NCBI GenBank assembly: GCA_964458565.1 | Contig: CAYWJO010000005.1 | Location: 78,200 to 142,199, forward strand | DNA length: 64,000 nt | Direction of reading: 5' to 3' | Source of the DNA: an uncultured archaeon | Lineage (GTDB): Archaea; Asgardarchaeota; Thorarchaeia; Thorarchaeales; Thorarchaeaceae | Shown here: piece by piece, positions 3,572 through 43,460 of the stretch | Numbering within the stretch: the stretch's first letter is position 1 | How the letters are laid out: every line of letters starts with the position of its first letter | The notes under the pieces: model-generated | The model's input: only the letters and a program-made list of their open reading frames with translations | Databases searched by the model: none | What the model was told of the DNA's origin: nothing | Translations under genes and position numbers: made by a program

Positions 3572-3686
3572 TTTTCAGCCTCATGGATAATATGGTAAAT
3601 CCAAGATACTGTCTAAGAAGATGCTATTTAATCTCCACACAGTTTATCAAACACCACATACACGAAACTAAGAACACACAAACAGA

Positions 3687-5000
3687 TTACATATGAATTA
3701 ACGCTGCATCAGGAGCCTCTTGAAATATCTCTCGAGCTGCACGACCTACTTTAACTCTGAATCTATCAGATGTATATACCCGAATCACATCAAAATAACC
3801 TCTCATCATATTGGCAATATTCGAGTAGTCTGATAGATTATGAGAAACTTTTTTCCCTTCAATTATTTCGAATACTCTAATCTCCATTGGTTTGACCTGA
3901 TAGGGATTGTAGGGTACGGACGGAAGGGTTGGCACATCCACTATTACCTCCTCCGATGCAATACCCACAGTTTCAGCTATTTCAATTTGAATACTCTCTC
4001 TAACTTTTTTCTTGGTAAGAATCTTAGAAACAAACCTATCTTCGGTATGCAAGACTTTCTCAAATGCTGATTTGTAGAGAACTCTACTATCTAATAGATT
4101 AACAATACGTACTGCTTCTTTTGCCTCTTCGGACTCAGTTCGGTCAATTTGCCTTATTTGCGAAATCAATGAAACATCATCTAAGACTAGAAACTCATCC
4201 GGAGTGGAAAAGCTAGTAAGATTCAAGGTTTTATCTGCAGCATGCATTAGGTTTACGAGCATTACTTCGACACTTCTAACAGCTTTGTGATAATACACAT
4301 TCAAAAACATCTCATATCTTGCAACTAGAAAAGCTTCAAGAGCCCCTCTTGCTGCTAAATCAAATTCAAGAGTTTTTTCCTTAGATACATCCAAACTCCG
4401 TATCAATCGATGTATATCGACAAGTCCGTAGTTTACACCACAATAGAAAGAGTCCCGAATGAGATAATCCATCTTATCAGCATCTACCTGTCCGGCTACT
4501 ATCCCACTTATTACCCCATCAAAATTCTTTACTCGACGCCCCCGTACCAGATCAGCAATCCGCTTTTTTGATATCCCTCCTTTCTCCATTATATCTCCTA
4601 CTGCACTCTTCTTTATCATCCACTCTGTAACATCTTCATGATTCATACCACGATTCTCAATCAAAGCTTCTTCAAAGACATGACTGAATGGACCGTGACC
4701 TAAATCATGTAACAATCCTGCAATTCGTATGTCCTGTAATACATCATCTCCGAGTCCTAAAAGTGGCAAAAGCCTACTTCCAGTGAGACCGGCTAGATAC
4801 ATTGCACCAATACAATGACCGAATCTAGTATGCTCAGCTGTTGGATAAACAAAATGTCCTCCTGAGAGTTGTTTGATTCTACGTAGTCTCTGATATGGCT
4901 CAGAATCTATAATCCCCTTTTCAACTTCAGTCAATCCAATTAACCCATGAATGGGATCATTAATTTCCATTATGAAATCCAAATTACCACCTACTGTCAT
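3687..5000 (-). CDS. HD-domain phosphohydrolase (SAMHD1/dNTPase-like)
   Basis: DPIHG, QRLRRIKQL, HTRFGH, LLHDLGHGPFSHVFE, DADKMDYLIRDS. Confidence 0.9.
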   Translation of the reverse strand: MTVGGNLDFIMEINDPIHGLIGLTEVEKGIIDSEPYQRLRRIKQLSGGHFVYPTAEHTRFGHCIGAMYLAGLTGSRLLPLLGLGDDVLQDIRIAGLLHDLGHGPFSHVFEEALIENRGMNHEDVTEWMIKKSAVGDIMEKGGISKKRIADLVRGRRVKNFDGVISGIVAGQVDADKMDYLIRDSFYCGVNYGLVDIHRLIRSLDVSKEKTLEFDLAARGALEAFLVARYEMFLNVYYHKAVRSVEVMLVNLMHAADKTLNLTSFSTPDEFLVLDDVSLISQIRQIDRTESEEAKEAVRIVNLLDSRVLYKSAFEKVLHTEDRFVSKILTKKKVRESIQIEIAETVGIASEEVIVDVPTLPSVPYNPYQVKPMEIRVFEIIEGKKVSHNLSDYSNIANMMRGYFDVIRVYTSDRFRVKVGRAAREIFQEAPDAALIHM

Positions 5001-5740
5001 ATCTTAGGGTCAAACTGTCTTATCTCACGAATCATCACTTCTGCTGAACTAATTTGTGAAACACACAATGGAAGATGAATACTATCAGCAATTTTAACTG
5101 CCAAGGGGTCCAACTCTTTCACACCCTGAAGAATCACGACTGCCGGTTTTACTGCAACAGAGGTTCCCATCTGACTAGCTTTTATTGCTACCATCGGTGA
5201 TCGACCTGTAGACACATTTGTGAGTATTGCAGCTCTTTGTGTTGTACCACCATAGAGCCGTAACAATTGTTGTGGTGTAAGATTCACTATTGCTTTCACA
5301 CTATCTAAAACAGTATATCCATATATGTCACGTTCAAGCAGACTCTTATGAGTCAACACCTTACAATTCAGTTTTTCTACTAGTACTCTTGCGGGAACAG
5401 GAACTCCAAACTCCCTACTGTCGAGTATAGCTTCGGACCCAATTTCCGGAGATATTAGCTTTTCAAGAGCCATGACAACACGACTGCCACTGGCCGCATC
5501 CATGTCTATTAATCCCTCAACAAATCGTTTGATTGTATCAACACGTGGAGATTTACGTCTTCCACTTTCGTAATCACTTATTACAGAGGGAGATACATCC
5601 AGATGGTTTGCAAGAGTCTTTTGAGATATTTGAAATCTTTTCCGCCATCTCTTCATTACTCTACCCGGATCGTTTTCTGCTAAACAAATTTCGCCGGCCA
5701 TTGTTTCAGCAAGCCGTTGAAGCGACTCACTCCAATCCAT
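4997..5740 (-). CDS. XRE-HTH transcriptional regulator with C-terminal DRTGG-like domain (conserved archaeal family)
   Basis: MAGEI...PG..MKRWR..F.ISQ..LA..L.VSPSVISDYESGRRKSP; GYTVLDS, TGRSPMVAIK; start placed at ATG 5740 (ORF track starts at 5809). Confidence 0.85.
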   Translation of the reverse strand: MDWSESLQRLAETMAGEICLAENDPGRVMKRWRKRFQISQKTLANHLDVSPSVISDYESGRRKSPRVDTIKRFVEGLIDMDAASGSRVVMALEKLISPEIGSEAILDSREFGVPVPARVLVEKLNCKVLTHKSLLERDIYGYTVLDSVKAIVNLTPQQLLRLYGGTTQRAAILTNVSTGRSPMVAIKASQMGTSVAVKPAVVILQGVKELDPLAVKIADSIHLPLCVSQISSAEVMIREIRQFDPKI

Positions 5741-5901
5741 GAATATCATCTCGTGTCTGTAACAGATAAGACTTGCGTAAAAGTCGATATAGATTACGTC
5801 AAATACCAACTAAAACAGAGCCAATGATTCACGGATTCATCTGATATATCTACCGAAGGACTCAAAGAGATAATTGTTTACCAACACCTCAGGTTAATGA
5901 T

Positions 5902-6672
5902 ATGTTCTTCATTTTTATCGTTGGCATGGCCGGATCCGGAAAATCTCTCTTGACTGCATCACTTGAGAAGTGGTTAGTAGGATCTAATATGAGTGTTTCA
6001 GTTGTAAATATCGACCCCGGAGTTGAGAGCCCACCTTATACAAGTGATGTTGATATAAGAGAGTATGTAGACTATGGTGAAATAATGAAACAATATGGCC
6101 TTGGACCAAATGGCGCTCTTGTTGCTTCACTTGATATGGCACTAAACTATGTTACTGATATTCGAGAAGAAATCGCAGAAGAAAGCAGGGACTATGTGCT
6201 TGTTGATTGTCCAGGACAAATGGAATTATTCGCATATCGTAATTCTGGACCTCTTATGGTTTCAAGTCTGCATGGAACAGATTCTGCACTTTCCCTCTAT
6301 CTTATGGATTCTAACATTGCTAGGACTGCTACAGGTTATATTGCCTCACTCTTGTTAGGAATATCAATCAATATCCGCTTTGGACTACCCCAACTTAACG
6401 TCTTGAGTAAATCTGATATATTAACTCCTGAAGAACTAATCAAACTTGAAATGTGGTCCGATGAACCGTATACACTCGAAGAGGCTGTTGATGAGTCAAG
6501 TACGGGTCTAATACGCGAATACTCGAAATCAACCCTGGTGATGCTGGATCAAATGGGTGGTGGTACGAGTATCATCCCCGTATCAGCAAAACAGATGACC
6601 AACATCGACACGCTATATGGTGGAATTCAGAGAATTCTGGCTGGTGGCGAAGATTATCTTTCATTTGAGTAG
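5902..6672 (+). CDS. GPN-loop GTPase
   Basis: GMAGSGKS, NIDPG, YGLGPNGAL, DCPGQMELF, SKSD. Confidence 0.92.
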   Translation: MFFIFIVGMAGSGKSLLTASLEKWLVGSNMSVSVVNIDPGVESPPYTSDVDIREYVDYGEIMKQYGLGPNGALVASLDMALNYVTDIREEIAEESRDYVLVDCPGQMELFAYRNSGPLMVSSLHGTDSALSLYLMDSNIARTATGYIASLLLGISINIRFGLPQLNVLSKSDILTPEELIKLEMWSDEPYTLEEAVDESSTGLIREYSKSTLVMLDQMGGGTSIIPVSAKQMTNIDTLYGGIQRILAGGEDYLSFE

Positions 6673-30966: not shown

Positions 30967-32427
30967 TCAGCTTTGTGAGTTTTTACGTTTGTCAACTATC
31001 TCATTATAGACAATATCCGTTCTTTTATGGGCTTGGTCAGCCATATCTTGCGTTATGAAACCCCGTTGTACCGCTCTTTTCAATAGATGTTGATCAATGA
31101 TTCGAATTTCACCATTCTCTGGAGCAACAATATCAATTTCCAAGTCGATATATCGTACTCTCCCCGGACTATTTCCTACACACGGATACACCTCGACTCC
31201 TGTATTCACATTGATATAGGTCCCCTTAAGAATTCCTTCACGTGAATAATATTTAGTGACAAGAGTCATCGATTCTGGTACAACTTCTGTTACTGCATAA
31301 TCTCCTTCATCACGAGGAACATCCACATTATCCGGATAGTCCTGCAGTATCTTTAGTTTTCTACTTGTATATCTGAACTGCCTTCGCACCTTAAAGACAA
31401 GCTGATCGACATCTATAATTCGCCCTCTGGAGAGAACTATGTTCCTACCGTCAAGTTTCACATGCTCGATATTTATTGGATCATCTTTCTTTGGCATATC
31501 CCGATTGAATATTTTCTCTAATTTTGATGTGATGTACTTTTTCTCATCAGGGCGTTCCTCAATTATCATTTCTGCAAAATCCACAAGAGGCGCATATCCT
31601 GCGCTTTTGTAGAAATGATGAAGATTCACAGTAGGCTTAATTTTAGCTCGTGTCTTATCTAGCGCATTTTTGACTTCAGCTGGGAATTCAATATCTGCAT
31701 TACTTGTCCCTTCAAATAAAATTCCTGCCCCCTGTATATTCGAAAATTTAGTATAAACTTGCTGTGCAGTATCCAGAAGGTCGTCAATCTCATTATGAAG
31801 TTCTTCGTCTGTGAGTCGTTTAGCAGAGGTTCTCCATAGAATACCCCAATTATCAGAGTGCTCTCGAATTTTCCTTCCAAGCTGTGCTAACTCTCTTCTT
31901 TTGTCCTGTTCCTTTATTTTAGTACTCAAACGTACAACTGGCTCTGGAAGTAGAACAGCTGCTCGTCCAGGAATAGTAATACTTGATGAGAGGACGGGGG
32001 CTTTTCGTCCATAATCATGAGCTCTAACCTGAACCATCACATATTCGCCTCGTCGGAGTCCTCTGTCTGGAAGAAGTCCTGATATTGAACCAAGATCTAT
32101 TCTTGTCTGACCCGTTTTTTCGTCTCTTCCTTGAACGCACCCTCTATAGATAGAACTCTTAGCAACTCGAGGCGTTCGAGTAATTACCCAACCTAATCTT
32201 CTACGTAAAACATCAGATAGTCTGTCAAGAATTGATTCGTAGGCAATTGCAACTATTCCTTGAAGGTCACTACGATCCCAAATATCTACATCTGGAATTT
32301 CGCTTCGGAAGGGGAGACCAAACCTTCTAGCCACTTCTGGGATAGGTTGAACTATCTCGAAATGGTTCTGTAATAGGATTTGGGTCAACGACTGCGAATA
32401 GATTCCCCTGATTCTTGCCTTTATCAT
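30967..32427 (-). CDS. FAU-1 AU-binding RNA protein/RNase (DUF402)
   Basis: ARIRGIYS, IVQP, S1-like region, WG..WRTSA, HH..K, YINVNT.VE, RYIDLEID. Confidence 0.85.
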   Translation of the reverse strand: MIKARIRGIYSQSLTQILLQNHFEIVQPIPEVARRFGLPFRSEIPDVDIWDRSDLQGIVAIAYESILDRLSDVLRRRLGWVITRTPRVAKSSIYRGCVQGRDEKTGQTRIDLGSISGLLPDRGLRRGEYVMVQVRAHDYGRKAPVLSSSITIPGRAAVLLPEPVVRLSTKIKEQDKRRELAQLGRKIREHSDNWGILWRTSAKRLTDEELHNEIDDLLDTAQQVYTKFSNIQGAGILFEGTSNADIEFPAEVKNALDKTRAKIKPTVNLHHFYKSAGYAPLVDFAEMIIEERPDEKKYITSKLEKIFNRDMPKKDDPINIEHVKLDGRNIVLSRGRIIDVDQLVFKVRRQFRYTSRKLKILQDYPDNVDVPRDEGDYAVTEVVPESMTLVTKYYSREGILKGTYINVNTGVEVYPCVGNSPGRVRYIDLEIDIVAPENGEIRIIDQHLLKRAVQRGFITQDMADQAHKRTDIVYNEIVDKRKNSQS

Positions 32428-32508
32428 GTACAAACACGAGCCCGGACATATACCACGACAGCCCTGTTTTAGGCTGACGTTCACTCCTATTAGAGGTTAA
32501 TGAGAAAT

Positions 32509-32772
32509 TTAATCTCGAATTGGTTCAAGAAGACTGGAAACCTGCCAGATTTTTGTCCTAGCATGGTTTGGACAGTTTGGATCTTGACTTGGTTCGTCCA
32601 AGATTGAAATTGCATTCTGCGCTCTCACAGCGGGCGAATCCGCCTCGTTCTCAAGGACCGCTATTGCCTCATTGGCTGCACGTCTTATGTTCCGTGGAAC
32701 CGAAGAATCTTCAGAAATCTGCTTAAGCAGATGTTTTGATTGGTCTATACTCCTCTGCGTTTCGGGGTCCAT
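32509..32772 (-). CDS. UPF0147 protein
   Basis: D.SVPRNIRRAA, VRA..AISILDE..QDPN.P.HART.IW...S.LE. Confidence 0.9.
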   Translation of the reverse strand: MDPETQRSIDQSKHLLKQISEDSSVPRNIRRAANEAIAVLENEADSPAVRAQNAISILDEPSQDPNCPNHARTKIWQVSSLLEPIRD

Positions 32773-32927
32773 GAGGACTCACCTCTAAATTGTCTTTACG
32801 CACGACATTGTTGTGCGAATAACAAAAACAGACTGCTGCGTTAGCAATATCAACGTTTTCATTAGTATATGCCGATTGATACTCAATCAGTATATAGCCT
32901 ATCTAAGCTATTAAAAACACCACTGAT

Positions 32928-33293
32928 GTGCTTATTATGACCGGTAAGAATGACCAACCTGTAAAGAAGATGGCTGAACTACTTCGTCGTGGGGCAACTA
33001 TGTTGGCTGATGCTTGTCCGCAGTGCGGATCACCTCTTCTAAAGGTAGACGAAGACATTTATTGTGCACACTGTGACCGTCGAATTGTATATGCCGATTC
33101 CGATGAAGAAGTCGAAACATATGCGGTGAAAGCGCTCATTCCTGAGCTACACGAAACTCTTCTACGGAAGTTAAGGTCATTGAATGATTTAGTTGAGGCC
33201 GAAGATAATATAGAATCACTAACAAAACTAGCGAATCTTATGGTTCTTCTACTGCAAACTCTGCACAATTTAGAAAATATGAGAGGAAATTGA
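32928..33293 (+). CDS. UPF0148 zinc-finger protein
   Basis: KKMAELLRRGATML..ACP.CG.PL...IYC..C. Confidence 0.88.
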   Translation: MLIMTGKNDQPVKKMAELLRRGATMLADACPQCGSPLLKVDEDIYCAHCDRRIVYADSDEEVETYAVKALIPELHETLLRKLRSLNDLVEAEDNIESLTKLANLMVLLLQTLHNLENMRGN

Positions 33294-33321
33294 AGTGACT
33301 ACGGTTCTATACCGTAGTCAT

Positions 33322-33966
33322 TTACTGTTTGGTGGTACCTCTTCGAAGTCTTGCTCTTCGAGCCTTTACTTCTTCAGGTCCCTTCAATACCTTACTCTTA
33401 CGAATTTCACACTGTCTGACTGGGATTATTGTCTTGACTGCCTCGTGTACTTCCGTTGCAAGTTCGCCCAAAATAACCTTTTGAACGAGTTCATCAAAGG
33501 TATGTTTCCTAGCATGAGTGCGGATTACCTTTTCAGTAGCTTTTCTTACTGAGTGTTCTTGACTTGTTTTTGCACGGGTCGTGGTGAATACAATCACTGA
33601 GATTCGCATAAGATAGTCATCTTTGGTCAAGATAGGGCCTATCCAGTCGATTCTTGTAGTACCTCTTCGCACTAGTCCTCTGAGATAATCCGAACTCCAC
33701 TCGTGTCCATGAAATACAGTCTTTCCTTGTTGACCTGTTACCTCAAGAACCTTAAACTTCAATTTTACATGAATCTGATCAAAATCGCCTGTTAGGTCAT
33801 ATAACGTCGGTTTTATGGTTCTCCCAATAAGTGAATCTGGATTGCTTGCTGGAGTTGTACCAATTTCTTTCTCATCAAAATAGTATGGTGCATGTATTGA
33901 ATACCATGCTTTCTCTCTCCACTTATCTCGGGTCCTTGCTGCTGACTGTCTACTTCTTGAGGACAT
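33322..33966 (-). CDS. rps3ae: 30S ribosomal protein eS1 (S3Ae)
   Basis: DKW..K.WY.I.AP..F, GR.....L.DLTGD, DYLR.LVRR, IRK.KVL; start at ATG 33966. Confidence 0.95.
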   Translation of the reverse strand: MSSRSRQSAARTRDKWREKAWYSIHAPYYFDEKEIGTTPASNPDSLIGRTIKPTLYDLTGDFDQIHVKLKFKVLEVTGQQGKTVFHGHEWSSDYLRGLVRRGTTRIDWIGPILTKDDYLMRISVIVFTTTRAKTSQEHSVRKATEKVIRTHARKHTFDELVQKVILGELATEVHEAVKTIIPVRQCEIRKSKVLKGPEEVKARRARLRRGTTKQ

Positions 33967-33983
33967 TGATTCATCACACTCAT

Positions 33984-34046
33984 TTTGGACATAGAAATTT
34001 GTCCAAAGAATCACGATGCGTTCCTGAGTAATGACTCCTCAGGAAC
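33984..34046 (-). promoter_or_regulatory. Two-hairpin 5' leader of rps3ae
   Basis: Perfect stems TTTGGACA/TGTCCAAA (33984-34007) and GTTCCTGAG/CTCAGGAAC (34020-34046) between a TTTTTATT box and the start codon. Confidence 0.5.
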
Positions 34047-34147
34047 TTCGCCGACATCCTAGGTGATGAATAAAAACATTGTGACATAACCTCTTCTTTC
34101 TTTCACTCCTTCTCTATGACTACATAACGAAAAACTAGATATTCAAT

Positions 34148-34309
34148 ATGGAAGAAGATAACAACGGTACGATGACCATGACTGATAATTGTCCAAAATG
34201 CGGATACAAAGAAGTCGCTGTTGTAAAGCGAGAACCCTTGACAAGTGGCGGTCACAGACGATATCTCCGATGTCCTCGCTGCGATCACACTTGGGAGAAG
34301 AAAGACTAG
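34148..34309 (+). CDS. Small zinc-ribbon protein (53 aa)
   Basis: Not in ORF track: MEEDNNGTMTMTDNCPKCGYKEVAVVKREPLTSGGHRRYLRCPRCDHTWEKKD*. Confidence 0.65.
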   Translation: MEEDNNGTMTMTDNCPKCGYKEVAVVKREPLTSGGHRRYLRCPRCDHTWEKKD

Positions 34310-34382
34310 GTTATTGAATTCTAGTCAAATCATCCTGTCCAAAACCATTATATCACAATCCACTGCCAATCGATTCTGATAT

Positions 34383-34424
34383 GCGGAGGTTGCCAAGCCA
34401 GGTCAAAGGCGCTGGGTTTAGGTC
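34383..34424 (+). pseudogene. 5' fragment of a tRNA-Leu(TAG), through the anticodon loop
   Basis: GCGGAGGTTGCCAAGCCAGGTCAAAGGCGCTGGGTTTAGGTC; first 33 nt identical to the intact tRNA-Leu at 36005-36124; own TATA box upstream. Confidence 0.88.
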
Positions 34425-35611
34425 ATCTCACCATCCTGTGATTGCTGCTGGTGTGATACAAGGTATCGTCTTTTTCTGATTCTATAAAGGATAACGGACA
34501 CTCCTATGGCGATGATGATAACGAGAAAGATCACTACTGGTCCAAGATTACTCGCTGTACTCCATGAGTAGACACCTATCTCCTTACCTCTGGTGGTTCT
34601 GAGAATGTGACCACCCCAGCTGATGGCCCATCCCAAAGATGCGTTGAGCATAAATATGGCTTCAATCCGTTCTTCTGTGGGAACTGACTGCTCATACCAG
34701 TCGACTCCACTATTCTGCGAATGAGCAATCAGAGGAGTCTTACCTCCAATCCATCCATGAGTTTGGTTGAGGAATTGAATATCAGTGAAGTAGGGTGATT
34801 GACCGTACGCACTATTGGGCAAGGATTGTTCAATCCAAGTTTTTCCATCCACCATGTGGGCTAGCATATCATCTCCCACAGCCCAAGCTTCAGTATCACT
34901 CACAAAGGAGAAAGCCCATCCACCTTTACTGTGACTCTTTTCCCAAGTTTCGCCACCATCAACAGTGTGATAAATACCGAATGTATTTATGATCCAACCA
35001 TCTTCTGGGCTCGTGAAGCAGATGTCCCTCGCTCGGTCATCATATGGATACGACAGAGTTTCGTTCCAGATCATCCCACCATCTATGGTCTTGTAGAGTC
35101 CTCTCTCTGAACTAGCCCAACCAAGTGTTTCATTGAAGAAAAACAATCCATAGAAATGATTAGACTCTGAACCAATTGGAATATAGTACCAACTCTCTCC
35201 ATCGTTTACTGAATGAAAAAGTCCACCATCAGCTGTTACCCACATATTGTTCCCTACAATTTCCATCCTTGGAAACCATGTGCTGTTGTTATAGAGCTGG
35301 ATTTGCCAAGAATATCCACTATCAGTAGTGTGGAGGATGATACCATCGCCAAAACTGGTCTTGTTCTGACTGAGTGCCCAGCCATGGGTGACGTTTTTGA
35401 ACTTGATATCAAATGCCATAACATCATCAATTACAAAATCATGGTCCACCTCTTCCCAGATGGTTTCTGCAAGCTCCCTCCGTACGTCGGAAAGATTCAG
35501 GGATATTCCCTCAGTTAGAGGTGGTATGGCTAAGATACAAATCGCCAATGCCGTAAACAGATGCCTAGCTCTCATCTCTATATGTTCCACCTTTTCTAAC
35601 ATACAATCCAT
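34418..35611 (-). CDS. YCF48/BNR (Asp-box) beta-propeller surface protein with C-terminal membrane anchor
   Basis: Signal peptide, repeated (H/K)T.DGG..W and F.N...GW motifs, C-terminal TM helix followed by a basic tail. Confidence 0.85.
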   Translation of the reverse strand: MDCMLEKVEHIEMRARHLFTALAICILAIPPLTEGISLNLSDVRRELAETIWEEVDHDFVIDDVMAFDIKFKNVTHGWALSQNKTSFGDGIILHTTDSGYSWQIQLYNNSTWFPRMEIVGNNMWVTADGGLFHSVNDGESWYYIPIGSESNHFYGLFFFNETLGWASSERGLYKTIDGGMIWNETLSYPYDDRARDICFTSPEDGWIINTFGIYHTVDGGETWEKSHSKGGWAFSFVSDTEAWAVGDDMLAHMVDGKTWIEQSLPNSAYGQSPYFTDIQFLNQTHGWIGGKTPLIAHSQNSGVDWYEQSVPTEERIEAIFMLNASLGWAISWGGHILRTTRGKEIGVYSWSTASNLGPVVIFLVIIIAIGVSVILYRIRKRRYLVSHQQQSQDGEMT

Positions 35612-35883
35612 TATAATGGTGGCGGGTCTCCACCTCCACCCCCACTATTGATGCTAGCATAGTAGACATCACTTCCAATGAAATGGGTTCCGGAGTCATA
35701 TGCCTTGACGTATACCTTCATCTTGACATAGCCATATGGAAGTGTCCACATCATGTAATAATCCTCATAGACTGGATGCACATCATTGATCTGTCCCTTG
35801 TATTCGTAGTTCGTCCAATACCCAGAGCTGTCCTTGTACTTCACATATACCTTGACATAGTCCACTACAAGTGGATCGTTCAC
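35611..35883 (-). CDS. Small Tyr-rich beta protein, possibly an N-terminally truncated secreted protein
   Basis: Abuts the propeller gene; ends GGGGGDPPPL; the frame stays open about 30 codons upstream of the GTG without a start codon. Confidence 0.55.
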   Translation of the reverse strand: MNDPLVVDYVKVYVKYKDSSGYWTNYEYKGQINDVHPVYEDYYMMWTLPYGYVKMKVYVKAYDSGTHFIGSDVYYASINSGGGGGDPPPL

Positions 35884-36004
35884 TCTAACATATCCAAGAG
35901 TGGACTTGCTCCATGCTGAGGAGATGAGAAGATTATCAGGAGATAGGATTAAGTTTCTCCAATTTTCACTAAGAGTAACTTATCTATACAATCTAAAGAG
36001 AGAA

Positions 36005-36124
36005 TGGTGCGGAGGGCGAGATTCGAATTCGCGCTTCCTGTCTACAAATTACAGGAGGTCTCGCGAATCACTACTGAACTGGATCCTAAGTCCAGCGCCT
36101 TTGACCTGGCTTGGCAACCTCCGC
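36005..36124 (-). tRNA. tRNA-Leu(TAG) with 32-nt intron at 53/54 (36028-36059)
   Basis: GCGGAGG...CTGGA-CT-TAG-GA-TCCAG, long variable arm, GCGAG[intron]TTCGAAT-CTCGC-CCTCCGC-A-CCA; BHB with CGCG/CGCG helix and AGA/AAT bulges. Confidence 0.9.
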
Positions 36125-36255
36125 AAAGGTAGAGAGCAATGGAAGTGGGTTGCGATATAATGCTTTTGCTGGATTCGTATTTTTAATCTGGTTCTTACTA
36201 GCTCGTTGAAAACGAGAGATTTTCTTATTATCAAATTACTTGTTTAATATACACC

Positions 36256-36405
36256 ATGACACCTCAAACCAATCTCCCCATTGTAGGTATCTGCAAAAGA
36301 TGTGGAAAGCCAGTTCATTACAATGAGCTGTATATTGCTCAAGTCGGGGCTGAAATTGGACCATGGCATCATTACAACTGCACTAAACTGCAAATTAGAG
36401 AGTAG
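36256..36405 (+). CDS. Small CxxC...HxxC zinc-finger protein (49 aa, half-LIM/PARP-finger-like)
   Basis: Not in ORF track: MTPQTNLPIVGICKRCGKPVHYNELYIAQVGAEIGPWHHYNCTKLQIRE*. Confidence 0.55.
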   Translation: MTPQTNLPIVGICKRCGKPVHYNELYIAQVGAEIGPWHHYNCTKLQIRE

Positions 36406-36417
36406 GATTGGGCAGTA

Positions 36418-37389
36418 ATGTCAACTAAAGAGAATCAAAATGACACTGATCCGAGAATCATGATAGCTCAGATGAATCAGGCATGGAGCGATGCAAGAAG
36501 TTACACTGGCAACATTTGGCAGATAGCAGCACTTTGTCTGACAGGTGTTGCTCTATCCCTGAACGTTGCATATTCTTCCACACTCGTAGAACCATTATTG
36601 GTACTAATACTACTCTTTACTTCGCTCTTAGCGTCTGGAGGGGTGTTTGGAATCCAATGGTTAAGATATAGCATAACTTACAGAGTAGTATACATTCAAG
36701 AAATTGAGGAGAAACTTGCCGAATTACAAGAAGAATACAAGATTACACCATCCTTACATCTTTTCGGGCTTGAAAAGGGCCCTCTTGCTTTTCTCTTTGG
36801 AATTCTGGTTGTGACCACTGAAACGTTATTCCTTTCTCTTGTATACGCATCCTATTTGCTTTTCATATCACTGAACATAGAACTTTCAGTTTCGATAGTT
36901 TTCACCATCATCATTTTCGTGATTTCTGTTTTACCATTTACTTGGTATGTGGTTCAGAAAAGGAGCAATCTTCGGAGTAGGGAGAAAGAATTAGCAAAAG
37001 AATGGAAATCCAAATTCTTGGAGATTTTATGGGAGGTGATTAATAAACTCAGGTTGGAGGGTCATGTCATTGAAGTTGTTTATGGTTTCTCTCTATATCA
37101 AGGAGAAAGAGAGCTTGATGTTGACATAATAATTAGCTCAGATGCCTATCGATTCACCTTCATAACCAGAACATCTTATTGGATTAGTAAGAAAAAATGG
37201 GATGATGCCAGAGCGTTTGAGAATGAGACTATCTTTATAGTAACTCCACATCATGAAAGGTTTCCAAAACAACGTAACAGAGTTTTTCCTATTAGCTCTG
37301 CAGTGAGTTCTAAAGATTTGAGAAAGTACCTCCTTGATGGATTAGCTGGAAAACTCATAGATGTAGAGAATGACCCTTTTGAAACATAA
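36418..37389 (+). CDS. Four-TM membrane protein with a C-terminal restriction-endonuclease-like domain (degenerate)
   Basis: Four hydrophobic helices, then E..VIEV...GERELDVDIII...RFTF, resembling a PD-(D/E)xK fold without the ExK. Confidence 0.55.
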   Translation: MSTKENQNDTDPRIMIAQMNQAWSDARSYTGNIWQIAALCLTGVALSLNVAYSSTLVEPLLVLILLFTSLLASGGVFGIQWLRYSITYRVVYIQEIEEKLAELQEEYKITPSLHLFGLEKGPLAFLFGILVVTTETLFLSLVYASYLLFISLNIELSVSIVFTIIIFVISVLPFTWYVVQKRSNLRSREKELAKEWKSKFLEILWEVINKLRLEGHVIEVVYGFSLYQGERELDVDIIISSDAYRFTFITRTSYWISKKKWDDARAFENETIFIVTPHHERFPKQRNRVFPISSAVSSKDLRKYLLDGLAGKLIDVENDPFET

Positions 37390-37422
37390 GTGTCCGAGTG
37401 GCTATAGAAACTGTTTCGAAAT

Positions 37423-37465
37423 TACTCGTAGGAGTTCGCGAGATCAAATCTCGCCCTCCGCACCA
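37423..37465 (+). pseudogene. 3' fragment of a tRNA-Leu (variable arm to CCA), intron-less
   Basis: TACTCGTAGGAGTTCGCGAGATCAAATCTCGCCCTCCGCACCA; acceptor strand complementary to the 5' fragment at 34383. Confidence 0.85.
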
Positions 37466-37505
37466 CTTCATTCTTATCTTACATCTTTACTTTCAAGTAT
37501 GAGTA

Positions 37506-37850
37506 ATGATGAAATACCTATTCTTAGCGACAGATGACAACAAAATGCAACTGATGCATCTTCTTCTAAACGCAAATAATTTCCATGAGAGAGGACATGA
37601 TGTTGCAGTCGTTCTAGAGTGCGCTTCACCCAAACTCTTGATTGGCCTTGCAGATGGGACGTTCAAACTACCTGTGTTTGATAAAGCATTGCAGTATGGG
37701 ATAATTGATCACGCATGTAAAGCATGCACTGCAAACTTCAATGCGACAGAATCTGCCGAGAAACTAGGAGTTCCAATAAAGGGCGAATTGGGTGGTCATT
37801 CGGACTTACTCGGATTTGCACAAGATGGATACTCAATAATCAGCTTTTAG
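37506..37850 (+). CDS. DsrE-family protein
   Basis: H.LLNA......G..V..V.E, ACKAC, L.GH, GY.II.F. Confidence 0.8.
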   Translation: MMKYLFLATDDNKMQLMHLLLNANNFHERGHDVAVVLECASPKLLIGLADGTFKLPVFDKALQYGIIDHACKACTANFNATESAEKLGVPIKGELGGHSDLLGFAQDGYSIISF

Positions 37851-37867
37851 AATGCAACCATTTGATA

Positions 37868-37967
37868 TGGCGCCGGGGAAGGGACTCGAACCCTTGAGTC
37901 TCAAAGGACAGCGGTTATCTCGTTCGGAAATTCGAGACCGCCTCCGTAGCCGCTTGGATACCCCGGC
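37868..37967 (-). tRNA. tRNA-Ser(CGA) with 14-nt canonical intron (37917-37930)
   Basis: GCCGGGG...GCGGT-CT-CGA-A[TTTCCGAACGAGAT]A-ACCGC, long variable arm, AAGGG-TTCGAGT-CCCTT-CCCCGGC-G-CCA; BHB CTCG/CGAG. Confidence 0.92.
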
Positions 37968-38007
37968 TCATCTGATTCTTAGCATCAAAACTAATTTAAC
38001 GTTGATG

Positions 38008-39393
38008 CTATTGTTTCTCACATTCATCAATAGCCCTACTCATTGCGCTTCTTGCAACTTCTTCCAATTTCCTTAGTGCACTTTCCGTTTTAGCACCGAC
38101 ATAAACTCTCGCTTTTGGCTCAGTTCCTGAAACCCTGACTAACACATACGAACCATCAGTACATTCTATTCGCACGCCATCATTGTCTAACACCTTATCA
38201 ATTCCTGTCACTTCTGATTCTAGATAGTTTCTAATACGTGAGCTGAAACAGGGTTTTATCGAATCCGGACAAGGAATGAAGTCCCTGAGCATAGGATATT
38301 CAGGTATTGACTTCATTAGTTTGATACAACTACCACTACCCTCAGATTCTATCATCTGAGCGACTCTTACAGCACCTATTATCCCATCCATCCACATACC
38401 GAATTCCATGAAGATAGGTTTCCAAGGTTCAGAGGCAAAGACAACCTCATCCCCTCTCTCAGCCAAAATCTCTTGAAGTGAACCTAGGGGAGCTCGAACT
38501 ACTTCTCCTCCTGCATTCTTGACTAATTCATCAATCACACTTGAAGTATCAATTGATACCACGACCAGTCCTCCATCCCGTCTTTTCACTTCATCTTGTG
38601 CGAAGAGGGCGATGATTCTATTCTGATCAATGAAATTGCCCTTTTCGTCTATGACTGCAAGACGGTCCCCATCCCCATCATGACATAAAGCAGCAGCAAA
38701 ACCTGATCCCGGCATCATATTCATAGTATCAACGAGATTTTTCGGAGATGGTTCTGCAGGTCTTCCTGGAAAATGGCCGTCTGGATGAGAATTAATGGTG
38801 CTTACTGAGAAACCAAGTTCTTCCATTATATGTGGTGTATAATTAACAGCAGCTCCATTTGCCAGGTCCAAAAGAAACCGAGTTCCACTAGACGCATTAC
38901 CTCTACTAAGTGCAAACCTCTTGACACGTTCTAGGTATGTCACTCTGATATCCCATTCAGTTATGGTTCCTATTTCATTCCATTCTGCTATCCGGAATTT
39001 GCGGTCACTGACTCGTTCCTCGAGATATACCTCCTCTGAACGGATGAATTCTCGACCCCTCGTAAAAAACTTGAATCCATTATCATTGGGTGGATTGTGA
39101 CTTGCGGTTATAATGACAGACATTGCACCTTCTTTCATTATGCTATAGGATGCTACTGTCGGCATTGGTGCTATTCCTAAGTCATCTACATTAGTACCAG
39201 TTGATGCTATTCCCGATACAAGTGCATTACGAAGCATTATATTAGATGTACGATAATCCATACCTACGCCAACGGTCCCTTTTCCATCAAGATAGGTGCC
39301 GAGTGCCTTTCCTAGATATTGAGCTAGGCCAGGGTTTGATTTTTCAATAATATCCCCTCGTATTCCACTGGTTCCAAAAATTCTCTTTGCCAT
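38008..39393 (-). CDS. Phosphohexomutase (phosphoglucosamine/phosphomannomutase family)
   Basis: FGTSGIRG, TASHNP, DGDGDR, DGVRI, R.SGTEP. Confidence 0.93.
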   Translation of the reverse strand: MAKRIFGTSGIRGDIIEKSNPGLAQYLGKALGTYLDGKGTVGVGMDYRTSNIMLRNALVSGIASTGTNVDDLGIAPMPTVASYSIMKEGAMSVIITASHNPPNDNGFKFFTRGREFIRSEEVYLEERVSDRKFRIAEWNEIGTITEWDIRVTYLERVKRFALSRGNASSGTRFLLDLANGAAVNYTPHIMEELGFSVSTINSHPDGHFPGRPAEPSPKNLVDTMNMMPGSGFAAALCHDGDGDRLAVIDEKGNFIDQNRIIALFAQDEVKRRDGGLVVVSIDTSSVIDELVKNAGGEVVRAPLGSLQEILAERGDEVVFASEPWKPIFMEFGMWMDGIIGAVRVAQMIESEGSGSCIKLMKSIPEYPMLRDFIPCPDSIKPCFSSRIRNYLESEVTGIDKVLDNDGVRIECTDGSYVLVRVSGTEPKARVYVGAKTESALRKLEEVARSAMSRAIDECEKQ

Positions 39394-39404
39394 TATTGCA
39401 TCTC

Positions 39405-40382
39405 CTAATTCTGAGGTAGTGCTAAGTCTGCTATATCTTTTGCAGCCTCTCCTATTCTGAGTAGGCTATCGACAACTTCCAGATGAATCTGAGTCTCTTC
39501 ACTTGAATCTGCTATTATGTCCTGTCGATATTTCTTGATATCTTCAATAAGCTCCTTTTCCGCATCAATTACCCATGCAACCTTTTCAGAATCAAACTTA
39601 AACAGATTCCCGAACGATTTTGTAAGCATCTCCTTGGTTGTTTCAACGATTTTGTCGATTTTTTTAATACTTCTCTTCTCAAGTGGTTTATTTGTCTTGG
39701 TTGCTATATCCACAGCAAGATCTGCTATCCTCTCAATATATTGAGCAGCAAGGCGAAAATCTAGAGCTGCGACTGGAGTGATATTCATAGTTTCTGACAT
39801 CCTTGGATACTGAATTGCCAGTCGCAATTCGCGGACGATTAGAAAGAAAAGACGATCAACTTCTTCATCCCTCTGTAAGACATCATTAGCTAGTTTCTCA
39901 TCACCCTCAAAGTATGCAGTAAGTGAATCATTTAGCATTCTTGTGGCAATCAGATTCATTCTACGCATGGTATTATGAACTGGCAATGTCGACGGATCCA
40001 CAAGGCATTGTACAACTATTTGATTTTCGTCTTCATCTGTTATTTCAAGAGCAACAAAGCGGCTGATTATCTTCTTTATCATATCTCTTTCTTTGTTTGT
40101 TATAGAATCTTTACTCGTTATTTTAATTTCATCAAAGCCGAGAAGATATTTGCTTGTAATTACCCAGCGTAAGTTCGATTCCATAGCTGCTGTGGTCGAT
40201 CGAGTTTCACCAGCCTTGGGTAGTCTTGGGTCAATAATCAGACAACCATCTTCCCTCTCTGCAACAACAACAGGATCTCCTTTATGCAAATCTTGTCTCA
40301 GTACCCATTCTTTTGGAACTATGATTAGGAAGGAGCTTCCTTCCTTTCCCCCTGTTTGTTGTAGACGTCTGATATTGACCAT
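39405..40382 (-). CDS. phoU: AbrB-PhoU phosphate uptake regulator
   Basis: RRLQQTG..S..I.VPKEW, RD.EVDRL, ERIAD. Confidence 0.88.
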   Translation of the reverse strand: MVNIRRLQQTGGKEGSSFLIIVPKEWVLRQDLHKGDPVVVAEREDGCLIIDPRLPKAGETRSTTAAMESNLRWVITSKYLLGFDEIKITSKDSITNKERDMIKKIISRFVALEITDEDENQIVVQCLVDPSTLPVHNTMRRMNLIATRMLNDSLTAYFEGDEKLANDVLQRDEEVDRLFFLIVRELRLAIQYPRMSETMNITPVAALDFRLAAQYIERIADLAVDIATKTNKPLEKRSIKKIDKIVETTKEMLTKSFGNLFKFDSEKVAWVIDAEKELIEDIKKYRQDIIADSSEETQIHLEVVDSLLRIGEAAKDIADLALPQN

Positions 40383-40560
40383 TGTAAAGTCACAACCTAT
40401 TATTGGTTGGCGCTAATTGAAAACCTACTCCTCCACTTATTTGCATTACCTACGATACAATATTTCTTATTAGACAAATCCGAATAAGAAATCCATCAAG
40501 TGTATGAATCGGTAGAAGATATTAAAACTACAGATAATCAACCACTACAACTGATGTTAT

Positions 40561-42177
40561 TTGACAGACAACGAAAGTCGTGATTTACTTCATAGAATCC
40601 TAGAGGCCGGTTATCAAATCACAAGAGATGCACTTGATTTCATCCTAGATCAAGACGCGTCATCGGATACAGTTGACCTCATTTTCTCTCAACATTACAT
40701 TGTAGTTCCACCCGTAATTTCACTCGATTTCGTACTATCCATCCTAGAATTGCCTTCCAAGGATGATAATATTACACAAGATATACTCGAAATTCATGAT
40801 GAGGCAGATATTCCAGAATCAGTGGAATCTAGTGATGAATCAGATGAACCAGACGAATGGCGCATCACCATTCAAAAGAGTCCCGATCTTGATTCTGTGG
40901 GGTCCGAAGGCACAGTTGATGATTTTCTAGCTCTATTCAGAGACCGCTTCACTCGTATTAGAAACATCTACCAGAGTCGCATTGACACAACGAGTGCACT
41001 CTCTCCTGCAGTTGCAAAATCGCGAGGAGTGGATATGCGTAGACGAAGGGCTATGAGCAAGGAGGGTTTCAAAACACAAAGAGCACCAACGCAAGTGGTC
41101 CTAGGTATGGTCATATCTAAGAACGTTTCTAGGTCTGGGAATATAATAGTAGAACTTGAAGATTCCGAAGATTCCTTGATTTGCGTCATCCCTGGAAACA
41201 TCTCCGGACCGGACGGACGAAATCTATCTGAAAAAGGCAATTCCCTCCTTATTGATGAGGTGACTTGTATATCTGGTTATGTTGACCAAGACAAACGAAT
41301 GATTGCCCGAGATGTGATATTTCCGGATATTCCAACAGCACGGGATATAGGACGGGCAAAAAGAGATGTATACGCTGTTTTCATATCAGATCTTCATGTT
41401 GGAAGTTATGAGTTTCTTAATGAGGAATTCAACTCCTTTATTGATTGGCTTCGAGGAATGAATATATCTTCAGATTTGAAAGAAGTTGCAAATCAAACAC
41501 GTTATCTCTTCATTGCTGGTGATTTGGTAGATGGCATAGGAATATACCCTGGACAAAAAACAGATCTGCTTCTACCTGACATATACGACCAATATGCAAT
41601 GCTTGCTGAACTTCTGAAGAAGGTGCCAGATAATATCAAAATTGTATGTATTCCAGGAAATCATGATGCCTGTCGACAAGCACTGCCAAAACCTCCAATT
41701 CCTAAGGATTTTGCAAAGCCTCTCTATGATTTAGGAGATCAAATTCTCATGCTTGGTGATCCTAGTCAAATCCGAGTGGAAGGAGTTAGTGTGCTCCTAA
41801 CACATGGTGACTCTCAGGATGATTTGGTGACTAGCTTACCAGGTGTAACTTACAAGAATCCAGCGGAATCGATGAAAGAACTCCTAAAGAAACGCCATTT
41901 GGCTCCAATATATGGCAATAAAACAGAGATGGCTCCACTAAGACATGATTGGATGGTTATTGATTTAATACCAGATATAGTCCATTTCGGACATGCACAT
42001 CATAATGCTGTTGATAATTATCGTGGCATTCAGATAATTAACTCGGGTACGTTTCAGTCACAGACCGAATTCATGAAGAAACAAGGCATTGATCCTACTC
42101 CTGGAATTGTAACCTATGTAAACCTCCGTTCAGGTGAACCTGGTGTCATACCATTTTACAATTTCGCTAGTAGATAA
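40561..42177 (+). CDS. DNA polymerase D small (proofreading) subunit DP1
   Basis: ISDLHVGS, AGDLVDGIGIYPGQ, PGNHD, HG, RHLAP.YG, PD..H.GH.H, NSGTFQ.QTEF. Confidence 0.95.
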   Translation: MTDNESRDLLHRILEAGYQITRDALDFILDQDASSDTVDLIFSQHYIVVPPVISLDFVLSILELPSKDDNITQDILEIHDEADIPESVESSDESDEPDEWRITIQKSPDLDSVGSEGTVDDFLALFRDRFTRIRNIYQSRIDTTSALSPAVAKSRGVDMRRRRAMSKEGFKTQRAPTQVVLGMVISKNVSRSGNIIVELEDSEDSLICVIPGNISGPDGRNLSEKGNSLLIDEVTCISGYVDQDKRMIARDVIFPDIPTARDIGRAKRDVYAVFISDLHVGSYEFLNEEFNSFIDWLRGMNISSDLKEVANQTRYLFIAGDLVDGIGIYPGQKTDLLLPDIYDQYAMLAELLKKVPDNIKIVCIPGNHDACRQALPKPPIPKDFAKPLYDLGDQILMLGDPSQIRVEGVSVLLTHGDSQDDLVTSLPGVTYKNPAESMKELLKKRHLAPIYGNKTEMAPLRHDWMVIDLIPDIVHFGHAHHNAVDNYRGIQIINSGTFQSQTEFMKKQGIDPTPGIVTYVNLRSGEPGVIPFYNFASR

Positions 42178-42197
42178 TATTATTCAGATTAGGAGCA

Positions 42198-43460
42198 TTA
42201 ATGTCCCAATTCTCTTGCAATTTTACTTAGCCGCACATCCTCATCAAGAATATCTCCAATCTGTCTCTTGCCAACAGCAAGTCGTATCTTCTTTGTACGA
42301 CCGTACCGTCCTTTTGATATCACAGTAGTATTGATGAGACCTAACATATCAAGTTCACTTATCAAATCACTTACTCTTCTTTGTGTTAATGTGTCCAGAG
42401 AGAGTGTTTTTGCTAGCTCCACGTACATATTATAACACTCTCCAGTAAAGATATCTCGCTTTCCATCGCTTGCAAGTGCGTAAACCGAGAAAAGTACAGC
42501 CTTGGATTGCAAAGGTAGAGTCTTTACAGTTTCAGTTATAGTATCTCTCTCAATGATTTTTTGAGCTTCGCGTACATGATCTTGTGTGACTTTCTCTTCT
42601 CCACGTCTCTCAGAAAGTTCGCCTGCAGTTCTTAGCAAATCAAGAGCCCGTCTTGCATCTCCATGTTCTTGAGCTGCTAAGGCGCCTACAAGATTGATAA
42701 CGCCATCATCTGCAATTGCATCATCGCTGAATGCCAGTTTTACTCTTTGTTGAAGTATACCCCTGAGTTCAACTGCATTATAGGGGGGAAATATCACTTC
42801 CTCCTCTCCAAGACTTGATAATACTCTCGGATCCAACATCTCCTTGAATTTCAAATCATTACTAATCCCAATTATTGATATTCTACTATTTTTCAACTCA
42901 GAGTTCATTCGTGTTAAACCATAGAGGATATCATTTCCTTGACTTTGATCTCTCTTTACAAGATTGTCAACTTCATCCAGTACTATCACAAAAATGGTCG
43001 GTTCCTCTTCAAGCTTTTTCATCAGTATTGATCGCACTTCATCAGTCGGTAATCCTGTGAATGGTACAACAGAACCATCAGGCATAGTTGCATCTATCTC
43101 CTCACAAAGAGTTCGGATTACACGATAATTAGTACCTACAATTCTGGAATTCACATATGCTTTCAATGGAGCTCTTACACCACTCTGCTCCGCTTTGGCA
43201 ACAAGCAAATCAAGGACATATCGAGCAACTACAGTCTTACCAGTACCAGTTTTTCCATAACAGAGAATATTCGAGGGAGGTGCCCCTCGTAATGCAGGAC
43301 CAAGAATTGCTCCAATTCGATTCATTTGTTCATCCCGGTATGGTAACTCCTCTGGAACGTATGTTGGTCTCAGAGCATCTCGCTCTCTGAAAATTGCTTG
43401 CCCGTGTATGAATTTATCAAATAACTTGTCAAGAGGTTTTTCCAGTTCAATCACACTCAA
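42198..43460 (-). CDS. cdc6: Cdc6/Orc1 initiator (copy 2, Orc1-1-like)
   Basis: YGKTGTGKT, VPFTG, LDEVD, LDPRV.SSL, HGDARRALDLLR, TQRRVSD.ISELDM.G, GRYGRT. Confidence 0.95.
   Translation of the reverse strand: MSVIELEKPLDKLFDKFIHGQAIFRERDALRPTYVPEELPYRDEQMNRIGAILGPALRGAPPSNILCYGKTGTGKTVVARYVLDLLVAKAEQSGVRAPLKAYVNSRIVGTNYRVIRTLCEEIDATMPDGSVVPFTGLPTDEVRSILMKKLEEEPTIFVIVLDEVDNLVKRDQSQGNDILYGLTRMNSELKNSRISIIGISNDLKFKEMLDPRVLSSLGEEEVIFPPYNAVELRGILQQRVKLAFSDDAIADDGVINLVGALAAQEHGDARRALDLLRTAGELSERRGEEKVTQDHVREAQKIIERDTITETVKTLPLQSKAVLFSVYALASDGKRDIFTGECYNMYVELAKTLSLDTLTQRRVSDLISELDMLGLINTTVISKGRYGRTKKIRLAVGKRQIGDILDEDVRLSKIARELGH

Follow-up and report, generated by a model that had tools for sequence, protein, structure and literature searches.

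In actinobacteriophages, a tRNA-dependent lysogeny has been described in which the host tRNA gene is destroyed and the phage brings its own tRNA (Guerrero-Bustamante & Hatfull 2024, PMC10865867). In the archaeon Caldiarchaeum subterraneum, an orphan 5' fragment of tRNA-Thr(GGU) lies ~1.8 kilobases (kb) from a complete gene with an extra intron, which the authors explained by a mobile element that integrated and by subsequent recombination (Sugahara et al. 2012, PMC3293823). Integrase-mediated inversions between tRNA-derived attachment (att) sites were reported for Thermococcales (Cossu et al. 2017, PMC5495485), and the classical integration of SSV- and pNOB8-type elements at tRNA att sites is reviewed in a section of PMC3293823. 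Here we analyze a locus in a 64-kb stretch of DNA (G000:C5:78200-142199, hereafter the window) of a Thorarchaeota assembly, G000, at which an insert of about 3 kb splits a tRNA-Leu(UAG) gene (the outer gene) into a 5' and a 3' fragment. The insert carries four protein-coding genes and, in inverted orientation, an intact tRNA-Leu(UAG) gene (the inner gene). We consider it fairly likely that this locus is a fixed, apparently immobile product of insertion and/or inversion at a tRNA recombination and integration hot spot in Thorarchaeota.

The locus resembles and differs from each of these systems. As in the actinobacteriophages, the insertion disrupts a tRNA gene of the host without restoring it; unlike in that system, the locus lacks an integrase, an identifiable short common core and genes of phages or plasmids, and its insert is a segment of just 3 kb in an archaeal host with an inverted spare gene that bears an archaeal intron. 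The C. subterraneum case (PMC3293823) is likewise archaeal, with an orphan 5' tRNA fragment near a complete, intron-bearing gene of the same tRNA, but its repeats are direct and a recombinase is encoded between them, whereas in G000 the complete gene is inverted, nested between the 5' and 3' fragments and not accompanied by a recombinase. As in Thermococcales (PMC5495485), segments are bounded by inverted tRNA-derived repeats and relatives show the tRNA in either orientation; unlike there, we found no pTN3-like integrase or integrated element and no alternative orientation in the population. Classical att-site integration, as reviewed in PMC3293823, is matched by about a dozen relatives, whose intact gene is followed downstream by a direct copy of the 3' end, but not by G000, where inverted repeats and a leftover 5' fragment accompany a gene that is not rebuilt. 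In split, trans-spliced archaeal tRNAs (Chan, Cozen & Lowe 2011, PMC3218864), a promoter-bearing 5' part and a 3' part also lie kilobases apart and the break is near an intron position, whereas here part of the exon sequence is missing, the flanks lack complementarity and a complete gene with the same anticodon exists. Different from these cases are the spare gene nested and inverted between both fragments, the lack of a recombinase, the host-like cargo and the Asgard host. The locus would be a clean natural Asgard example of an essential tRNA gene destroyed and functionally replaced within one locus; it bears on the origin of disrupted, split and intron-rich archaeal tRNA genes, and on the question of mobile-element traffic leaving tRNA introns and gene fragments behind as by-products.

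The assembly, obtained from salt marsh, comprises 3.73 Mb in 93 contigs, is 93% complete and has a GC content of ~40%. We compared it with 86 genomes of the same family and inspected 60 syntenic loci; all relatives compared belong to other genera. tRNA genes were searched for with the Rfam tRNA model RF00005 (gathering score 29) and with ARAGORN in its default and introns-allowed modes. The four open reading frames (ORFs) of the insert were compared with Pfam, NCBIfam and PHROGs, and the Pfam scan covered the ORFs at 30970-40382. The central elements, with positions in the window given in nucleotides (nt), are as follows.

34340-34368, plus strand: promoter P1 of the broken outer gene, similar to a B recognition element (BRE) and TATA box, AAAACCATTATATC
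34383-34424, plus strand: outer 5' fragment, tRNA nt 1-39
34425-37424: insert of ~3.0 kb, separating nt 39 from nt 44/45 of the old tRNA gene
36005-36124, minus strand: inner tRNA-Leu(UAG), with encoded CCA (36005-36007) and a 32-nt T-arm intron (36028-36059); Rfam score 47.7 bits (36008-36124)
36140-36168, minus strand: promoter P2 of the inner gene
37425-37465, plus strand: outer 3' fragment with variable arm, T arm, acceptor, A73 and CCA, and no T-arm intron
34382-34422 and 36085-36125, inverted: repeat I1 between 5' fragment and inner gene, 41 nt, 95% identical, 34 nt exact
36005-36033 and 37437-37465, inverted: repeat I2 between inner gene and 3' fragment, 29 nt, 90% identical, 18-19 nt exact
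34340-34368 and 36140-36168, inverted: repeat I3, the promoters, 25/29 identical

The outer gene encoded a class-II tRNA, and its 5' fragment contains the acceptor strand, the D arm, the 5' anticodon stem CTGGG, the loop TTTAGGT with the TAG anticodon, and C39. This fragment was identical (42/42) to the orthologue in relative G021, whose gene consists of the 5' fragment, the nucleotides CCAGT and the 3' fragment. With respect to G021, the net change is a loss of 4-5 nt, namely CCAG of the 3' anticodon stem and the first base (T) of the variable arm, and the gain of the insert. CCAG was found in neither flank. Relatives have at this point either the 4-5 nt (CCAG T) or an intron of 29-39 nt at ~43/44. 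Together, the outer pieces were 77/80 identical to the genes of G021 and G071 (here and below, identities between the tRNA genes were computed without introns), and the 3' fragment alone was 93-98% identical to the genes of relatives, its T loop being ATCAAAT (T54A) as compared to TTCAAAT or TTCGAAT. The break lies 9 nt past the exact part of I1: the 5' fragment continues with G TTTAGGT C and the inner gene with A CTTAGGA T. Direct joining of the two pieces results in a mismatched anticodon stem and a tRNA lacking the long variable arm. Judged from sequence, the outer pieces are a two-piece pseudogene unable to rebuild a tRNA. Because ~50 relatives hold one intact plus-strand tRNA-Leu(UAG) at exactly this site, the fragments can be assigned to the ancestral syntenic gene of this lineage, which was originally located, with P1, between the genes for rps3Ae and a DsrE-like protein. 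In the orphan 5' fragment with its promoter (together 34340-34424), P1 appears intact and is directed into the 3' end of a cargo gene, the BNR gene (34418-35611), to whose mRNA a transcript from P1 would be antisense.

The inner gene has its intron at ~53/54 in the T arm. After in silico removal of this intron, ARAGORN called an 88-nt tRNA-Leu(tag) with a normal cloverleaf, a long variable arm, A73 and the encoded CCA. The same intron is present at the same place in the Leu(CAG) gene of the genome (C2:86605-86721) and in Leu(CAG) and Leu(GAG) genes of other genera, and it is otherwise typical of these CAG and GAG isoacceptors; between the inner gene and the genes of other genera, its hairpin showed compensatory changes at 3 pairs across 5 genes. 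A tRNA-Leu(GAG) gene was not found in G000 by Rfam and ARAGORN and may lie in the unassembled 7%; it is present in relatives G001, G007, G016 and G017, with the same acceptor and T-arm intron. Throughout the assembly, a Leu-type D arm with a TAG loop was observed at only two loci, the outer 5' fragment and the inner gene, and the acceptor sequence in only three copies, the third being Leu(CAG). The inner gene is the sole intact Leu(UAG) gene of the assembly, and for this reason the insert is now probably indispensable.

The inner and outer genes belong to two sequence types, with the variable arms TTCAGTAGTGATTC and TCTCGTAGGAGTTC, each of which was found at the syntenic site in other genera. 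The inner gene was 82/85 identical to the syntenic gene of G008, 79/85 to the one gene sequence shared by G053 and G073 and also to that of G079, and 78/85 to that of G063, with only 68/80 matches to the outer gene. Given that it is closer to the gene of another genus (G008) than to its neighbor, the inner gene is not a recent copy of the outer gene. The similarity between P1 and P2 (25/29) about equals that between P1 and the promoter of the orthologue in G006 (~26/33 aligned bases, counted by eye). The inner gene and P2 look like a Leu(UAG) unit from a related Thorarchaeon or like an old paralogue.

These data largely agree with an earlier note on this DNA, made from its letters alone. The note had described two outer fragments that would rebuild an intronless tRNA-Leu(TAG) except for about 4 nt (CCAG), an intact minus-strand tRNA-Leu(TAG) with a T-arm intron midway between them, the different variable arm and anticodon-stem pair of the latter, and the 25/29 match of the promoters, all of which we recovered. 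The genome-wide count of Leu(TAG) genes that it had proposed returned the one intact inner gene and the outer fragment, and the proposed comparison with related genomes revealed an uninterrupted gene in ~50 of the 60 loci. Its 3' piece (37423-37465) is present and derived from tRNA-Leu, but homology begins at 37425. Its caveat that the fragments might stem from unrelated isoacceptor genes and independent events is countered by the match of both to a single syntenic Leu(UAG) gene, as seen in G021.

The syntenic site is flanked by two anchors.

33322-34014, minus strand: rps3Ae gene, left anchor, adjoining tRNA-Leu(UAG) in ~50 relatives; Pfam Ribosomal_S3Ae, 1e-68
37506-37850, plus strand: DsrE-like gene, right anchor, following the tRNA in relatives; Pfam DsrE, 6.7e-5

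The intact plus-strand gene of these relatives is found 0.35-0.45 kb from rps3Ae, has a similar TATA promoter and is part of the order rps3Ae, tRNA-Leu(TAG), DsrE-like gene, tRNA-Ser and phosphoglucomutase gene; in the genomes of genus g8, the linkage of rps3Ae and the tRNA is lost. Orphan direct copies of the tRNA 3' end were observed at the locus downstream of an intact gene in G005, G008, G021, G058, G059, G064, G068, G072, G076 and metagenome contig L099, as well as in G063 and metagenome contig L095. The downstream copies in about a dozen relatives correspond to the classical mark of att-site integration. The DNA enclosed by the tRNA and the orphan copy spans ~0.4 to 3.9 kb and encodes surface or unknown proteins, such as an LVIVD beta-propeller protein in G064; no integrases were found in these tRNA-flanked inserts. 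The longest is illustrated by L015 (G008:C16), in which 3.9 kb (2016-5976) separate the intact tRNA-Leu(TAG) from a directly repeated stretch of the gene's final ~30 nt; the cargo comprises a 558-aa (amino acid) TnpB/Cas12f-like protein, a C39 peptidase and unknown ORFs, with no integrase.

In three cases (G063 on L052, G079 on L072, and L095), the intact gene is inverted and points away from plus-strand orphan 3' pieces. In L052 (G063:C64, 9840-10800), an intact, intronless tRNA-Leu(TAG), inverted with respect to rps3Ae, is followed by two plus-strand orphan 3' pieces, each with a 30-nt T-loop intron at ~58/59; a 128-aa membrane ORF lies between them and the second piece starts within a 43/44 intron. 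Breaks at the 43/44 position recur, as the orphans beside DsrE begin inside a 43/44 intron in both G063 and G058; for comparison, G063 reads CATCAGGGAAGT and the intron end in L099 reads CATCAGGGAAAT. The introns of the syntenic tRNA-Leu(TAG) genes (L016, L019-L022, L024-L026, L054, L058, L060, L099) have unrelated sequences and very different places, including the D arm, the anticodon region, ~43/44, the variable arm/T stem and the T loop, which points to a fast gain and loss of introns at this one locus within the family. Taken together, the sequence comparison indicates that insertion, the formation of orphan fragments and inversion occur across the family at the tRNA-Leu(UAG) gene beside rps3Ae.

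The arrangement in G000 was checked against Logan k=31 contigs from four salt-marsh runs (X1-X4) and against two contigs of the Joint Genome Institute (JGI), L101 and L102; one sample behind the JGI and Logan contigs may be the source of the G000 assembly. L102 corresponds to window 33649-35764 (rps3Ae, P1, 5' fragment and the leftmost cargo gene) and L101 to window 34720-37417 (the two left cargo genes, inner tRNA, P2 and the two right cargo genes). The two are from different samples and together cross both arms of I1. Logan contig L100 corresponds to window 36096-43389 and spans the right junction. All three are colinear with the window and 100% identical to it, so that three independent assemblies give the same arrangement, including orientation. 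Because of this colinearity across junctions and repeat arms, and because the break lies 9 nt outside the exact repeat, the arrangement is real and not an assembly chimera at the tRNA repeats, which the earlier note had named as a possible objection.

Apart from the inner gene, the insert contains four ORFs.

34418-35611, minus strand: BNR/Ycf48-like beta-propeller protein of 397 aa, predicted to be secreted; PSII_BNR, 2e-17, and a weak Loki-CTERM match
35611-35883, minus strand: 90-aa ORF (orf90), partner of the BNR gene, with an 80% aa paralogue beside the BNR paralogue on contig C7; no family match
36256-36405, plus strand: 49-aa Cys/His-rich ORF from the ORF list, possible zinc ribbon; no family match in Pfam, NCBIfam and PHROGs
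36418-37389, plus strand: 323-aa protein (orf323) with a helical/membrane N-terminal half and a putative PD-(D/E)xK-like C-terminal domain

The BNR gene and orf90 share their strand with the inner tRNA and run leftward; the small ORF and orf323 run rightward. The BNR protein has a signal-like N-terminus and a C-terminal membrane anchor, its weak Loki-CTERM match is in keeping with an Asgard host, and its paralogues are on contigs C54 (57% aa identity) and C7 (52%). The similarity to these stops after residue ~381, past the anchor; the final ~15 codons and the stop derive from junction DNA and the tRNA fragment, and the stop TAA is the complement of T33-T34-A35, which places the end of this gene within the broken anticodon loop, as the earlier note had stated. 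At the position of the 49-aa ORF, L095 has a different zinc-ribbon ORF. The structure model of orf323 has a mean predicted local distance difference test score (pLDDT) of 62, with 70-87 within the C-terminal domain, which has the fold alpha-beta-beta-beta-alpha-beta and matched the structures of TIP26, Can1, Can2, Cdn1 and Bax1 with Z scores of 7.3-8.2; the model lends modest support to a PD-(D/E)xK-like domain. Seven homologues of orf323 were found, all Thorarchaeota-like or metagenomic, of which few are full-length and the contexts are varied; those in G063 (beside DsrE) and L095 are close to the same tRNA locus. In L093, a 58%-identical homologue (4589-5560) immediately precedes hsdM and hsdS, genes of type I restriction-modification, a context that hints at a defence-island gene family without a Pfam model. 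The GC content of the insert is 0.41-0.44 and that of its neighbors 0.38-0.42, which we take as the same composition. Given this composition, the paralogues on C7 and C54 and the orf323 homologue beside DsrE in G063, the cargo looks native to the host.

In the explanation that we favor, the old tRNA-Leu(UAG) gene with P1 took up ~3 kb between nt 39 and 44/45, where several relatives carry a non-canonical intron. The event was probably brought about by a mobile element or through tRNA-derived repeats recombining with each other, the recombinase having acted in trans or been lost since. The simplest history would be a net insertion, into the old gene, of the BNR gene, orf90, the inverted tRNA with P2, the small ORF and orf323; integration may equally well have produced a duplication, after which an inversion took place that had one of its ends in the old gene. 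The inner gene, of a different type, in opposite orientation and with its own TATA/BRE promoter, would now do all Leu(UAG) decoding: it would be transcribed from P2, the archaeal splicing endonuclease would remove the 32-nt T-arm intron, and the CCA is gene-encoded. The segment would now be immobile and kept because it holds the sole copy of this tRNA. Several points weigh against this explanation. How the insertion took place is something that we infer, as neither a recombinase nor an att core nor an empty-site allele turned up, and with all compared genomes from other genera the event can be neither dated nor polarized. An orphan 5' fragment was found in none of the other ~60 loci, that of G000, with its promoter, being the only one, so that this case is not simply another att scar. 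The likeness of P1 and P2 (25/29) is on a par with that of orthologous promoters from different genera, which fits a transfer from a related Thorarchaeon as well as an old local duplication. Moreover, the assembly is 93% complete, and DNA missing from it could harbor another Leu(UAG) gene or the Leu(GAG) gene that was not found.

A first alternative, which we consider unlikely, is that the insert is a tRNA-dependent integrative element that enters tRNA-Leu(UAG) via a short core without rebuilding it, brings its own tRNA and can be mobilized in trans. Such a design is proven in actinobacteriophages (PMC10865867). It would account for a host gene that is not rebuilt (CCAG gone, joined product defective) next to a complete tRNA with the same anticodon inside the insert, for an inner gene of another sequence type than the outer one, as expected if it was imported, and for the inner gene being the only intact copy. 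However, no integrase, transposase or replication genes were detected among the four insert ORFs with Pfam, NCBIfam and PHROGs, and no dedicated recombinase among the ORFs scanned at 30970-40382; the whole assembly has one tyrosine recombinase (the sole PF00589 match), on another contig (C53). The ends of the insert share no core, the longest direct match at the junctions being 5 nt, below the shuffle mean of 5.9, and show neither a target duplication nor terminal inverted repeats beyond chance. As a unit, the insert was not found in the 86 family genomes or in protein and contig look-ups, in which its genes occurred separately and in varied contexts, and its base composition equals that of the flanks. 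The classical att signature of a rebuilt tRNA and a direct repeat is likewise not seen in G000, which has inverted repeats and an outer gene left unrepaired; on this difference from ordinary att-site duplication, and on the lack of an integrase in the insert, our results coincide with the earlier note. Of its proposal that an element destroys a host tRNA, supplies its own copy and becomes indispensable, the loss and replacement of the tRNA fit the locus, where a ~3.0-kb insert splits the syntenic gene and carries the assembly's only intact Leu(UAG), inverted and with a related promoter, but nothing marks this insert as a discrete mobile element.

Rather improbable is a second alternative, an invertible segment in which I1 and I2 serve as recombination sites and flipping of 34.4-36.1 or 36.0-37.4 kb would always leave one intact tRNA and re-orient the cargo. 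Inverted repeats do bound these segments, and working out both flips from the sequence showed that either regenerates one intact gene. In Thermococcales, an integrase is documented to drive inversions between att sites that derive from tRNA genes (PMC5495485), and the inverted genes beside plus-strand orphan 3' pieces in G063, G079 and L095 make flip sites, as suggested by the earlier note, plausible. However, three assemblies show a single orientation, with L101 and L102 over both I1 arms and L100 and other Logan contigs over the right junction, although contigs drop rare variants; the exact repeats are short (34 nt in I1, 18-19 nt in I2), and no recombinase gene is nearby among the ORFs at 30970-40382. 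One candidate for a flip, a joint between opposite strands in run X4 (36031 to 37469, side 31), proved to come from an unrelated contig that overlaps the repeat over just 31 nt. A candidate for an empty-site allele, a Logan contig from run X2 joining 34424 to 37425 via CCAG and a 34-nt intron, was L099, which represents another, g6-like Thorarchaeon (DsrE 74% and phosphoglucomutase 65% aa identity) and was rejected as an empty site. A pattern search for the L099 intron in the 86 family genomes and a metagenome scan for the P1 junction each gave zero matches.

It is very improbable that the outer halves are joined in trans, as a split tRNA, or in cis, across a giant intron, to give a second tRNA-Leu(UAG). 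The apparently intact promoter of the 5' fragment and the break near the intron position of relatives would fit, as would a weak similarity (p about 0.02) of the left flank to one such intron. Against this, CCAG is missing from both flanks, and joining the halves leaves the stem defective and the long variable arm absent. Pairing between the RNA downstream of the 5' piece and that upstream of the 3' piece was no better than in shuffles (-33.5 versus a mean of -31.3 ± 4.6; 29% of the shuffles reach the observed energy), T54 is mutated, and the gap is filled by coding genes on both strands. With CCAG missing and leader and trailer not complementary, trans-splicing and a giant intron were rejected. 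The idea that the break occurred inside a 43/44 intron is tentative only: a match as long as the 11-nt one of the left flank arose in 90 of 5000 shuffles and in 2% of genomic windows, and the right flank shares just GAAAT. An assembly artefact at the tRNA repeats has next to no probability, given breaks outside the exact repeats and two colinear, 100% identical JGI contigs from different samples across both repeat arms, even though the Logan k=31 contigs of all four runs break at the 34-nt exact repeat and alone cannot orient 34417-36090.

A broader conjecture, in which we place little confidence, is that recombinase-less Thorarchaeota cassettes with a whole tRNA-Leu(UAG) may enter, at or close to the 43/44 intron site, a resident gene with the same anticodon, kill and replace it and so lock in the host, the leftover inverted halves then becoming flip sites. 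If true, tRNA-dependent lysogeny would have in such cassettes an archaeal counterpart that does without an integrase.

The locus also has consequences for annotation. In default mode, ARAGORN returned zero tRNAs across the whole 64-kb window; default tRNA finders overlook both the working gene and the fragments, so that an annotation would wrongly report Leu(UAG) as missing. The ARAGORN calls of tRNAs with giant introns elsewhere in the assembly, at C39:11472-13951 (Asp, 2389 nt) and C40:17954-18492 (Met, 457 nt), were rejected as false positives with poor cloverleaves within coding sequence. A further tRNA gene is found next to the DsrE-like gene, outside the rearrangement.

37871-37967, minus strand: tRNA-Ser(CGA) with an intron; Rfam score 39.6 bits in the whole-genome search, and found by ARAGORN with introns allowed

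This gene was not listed by the Rfam gathering scan of the window and was missed by default ARAGORN. The tRNA gene set is intron-rich throughout the genome, and its annotation calls for intron-aware tools.

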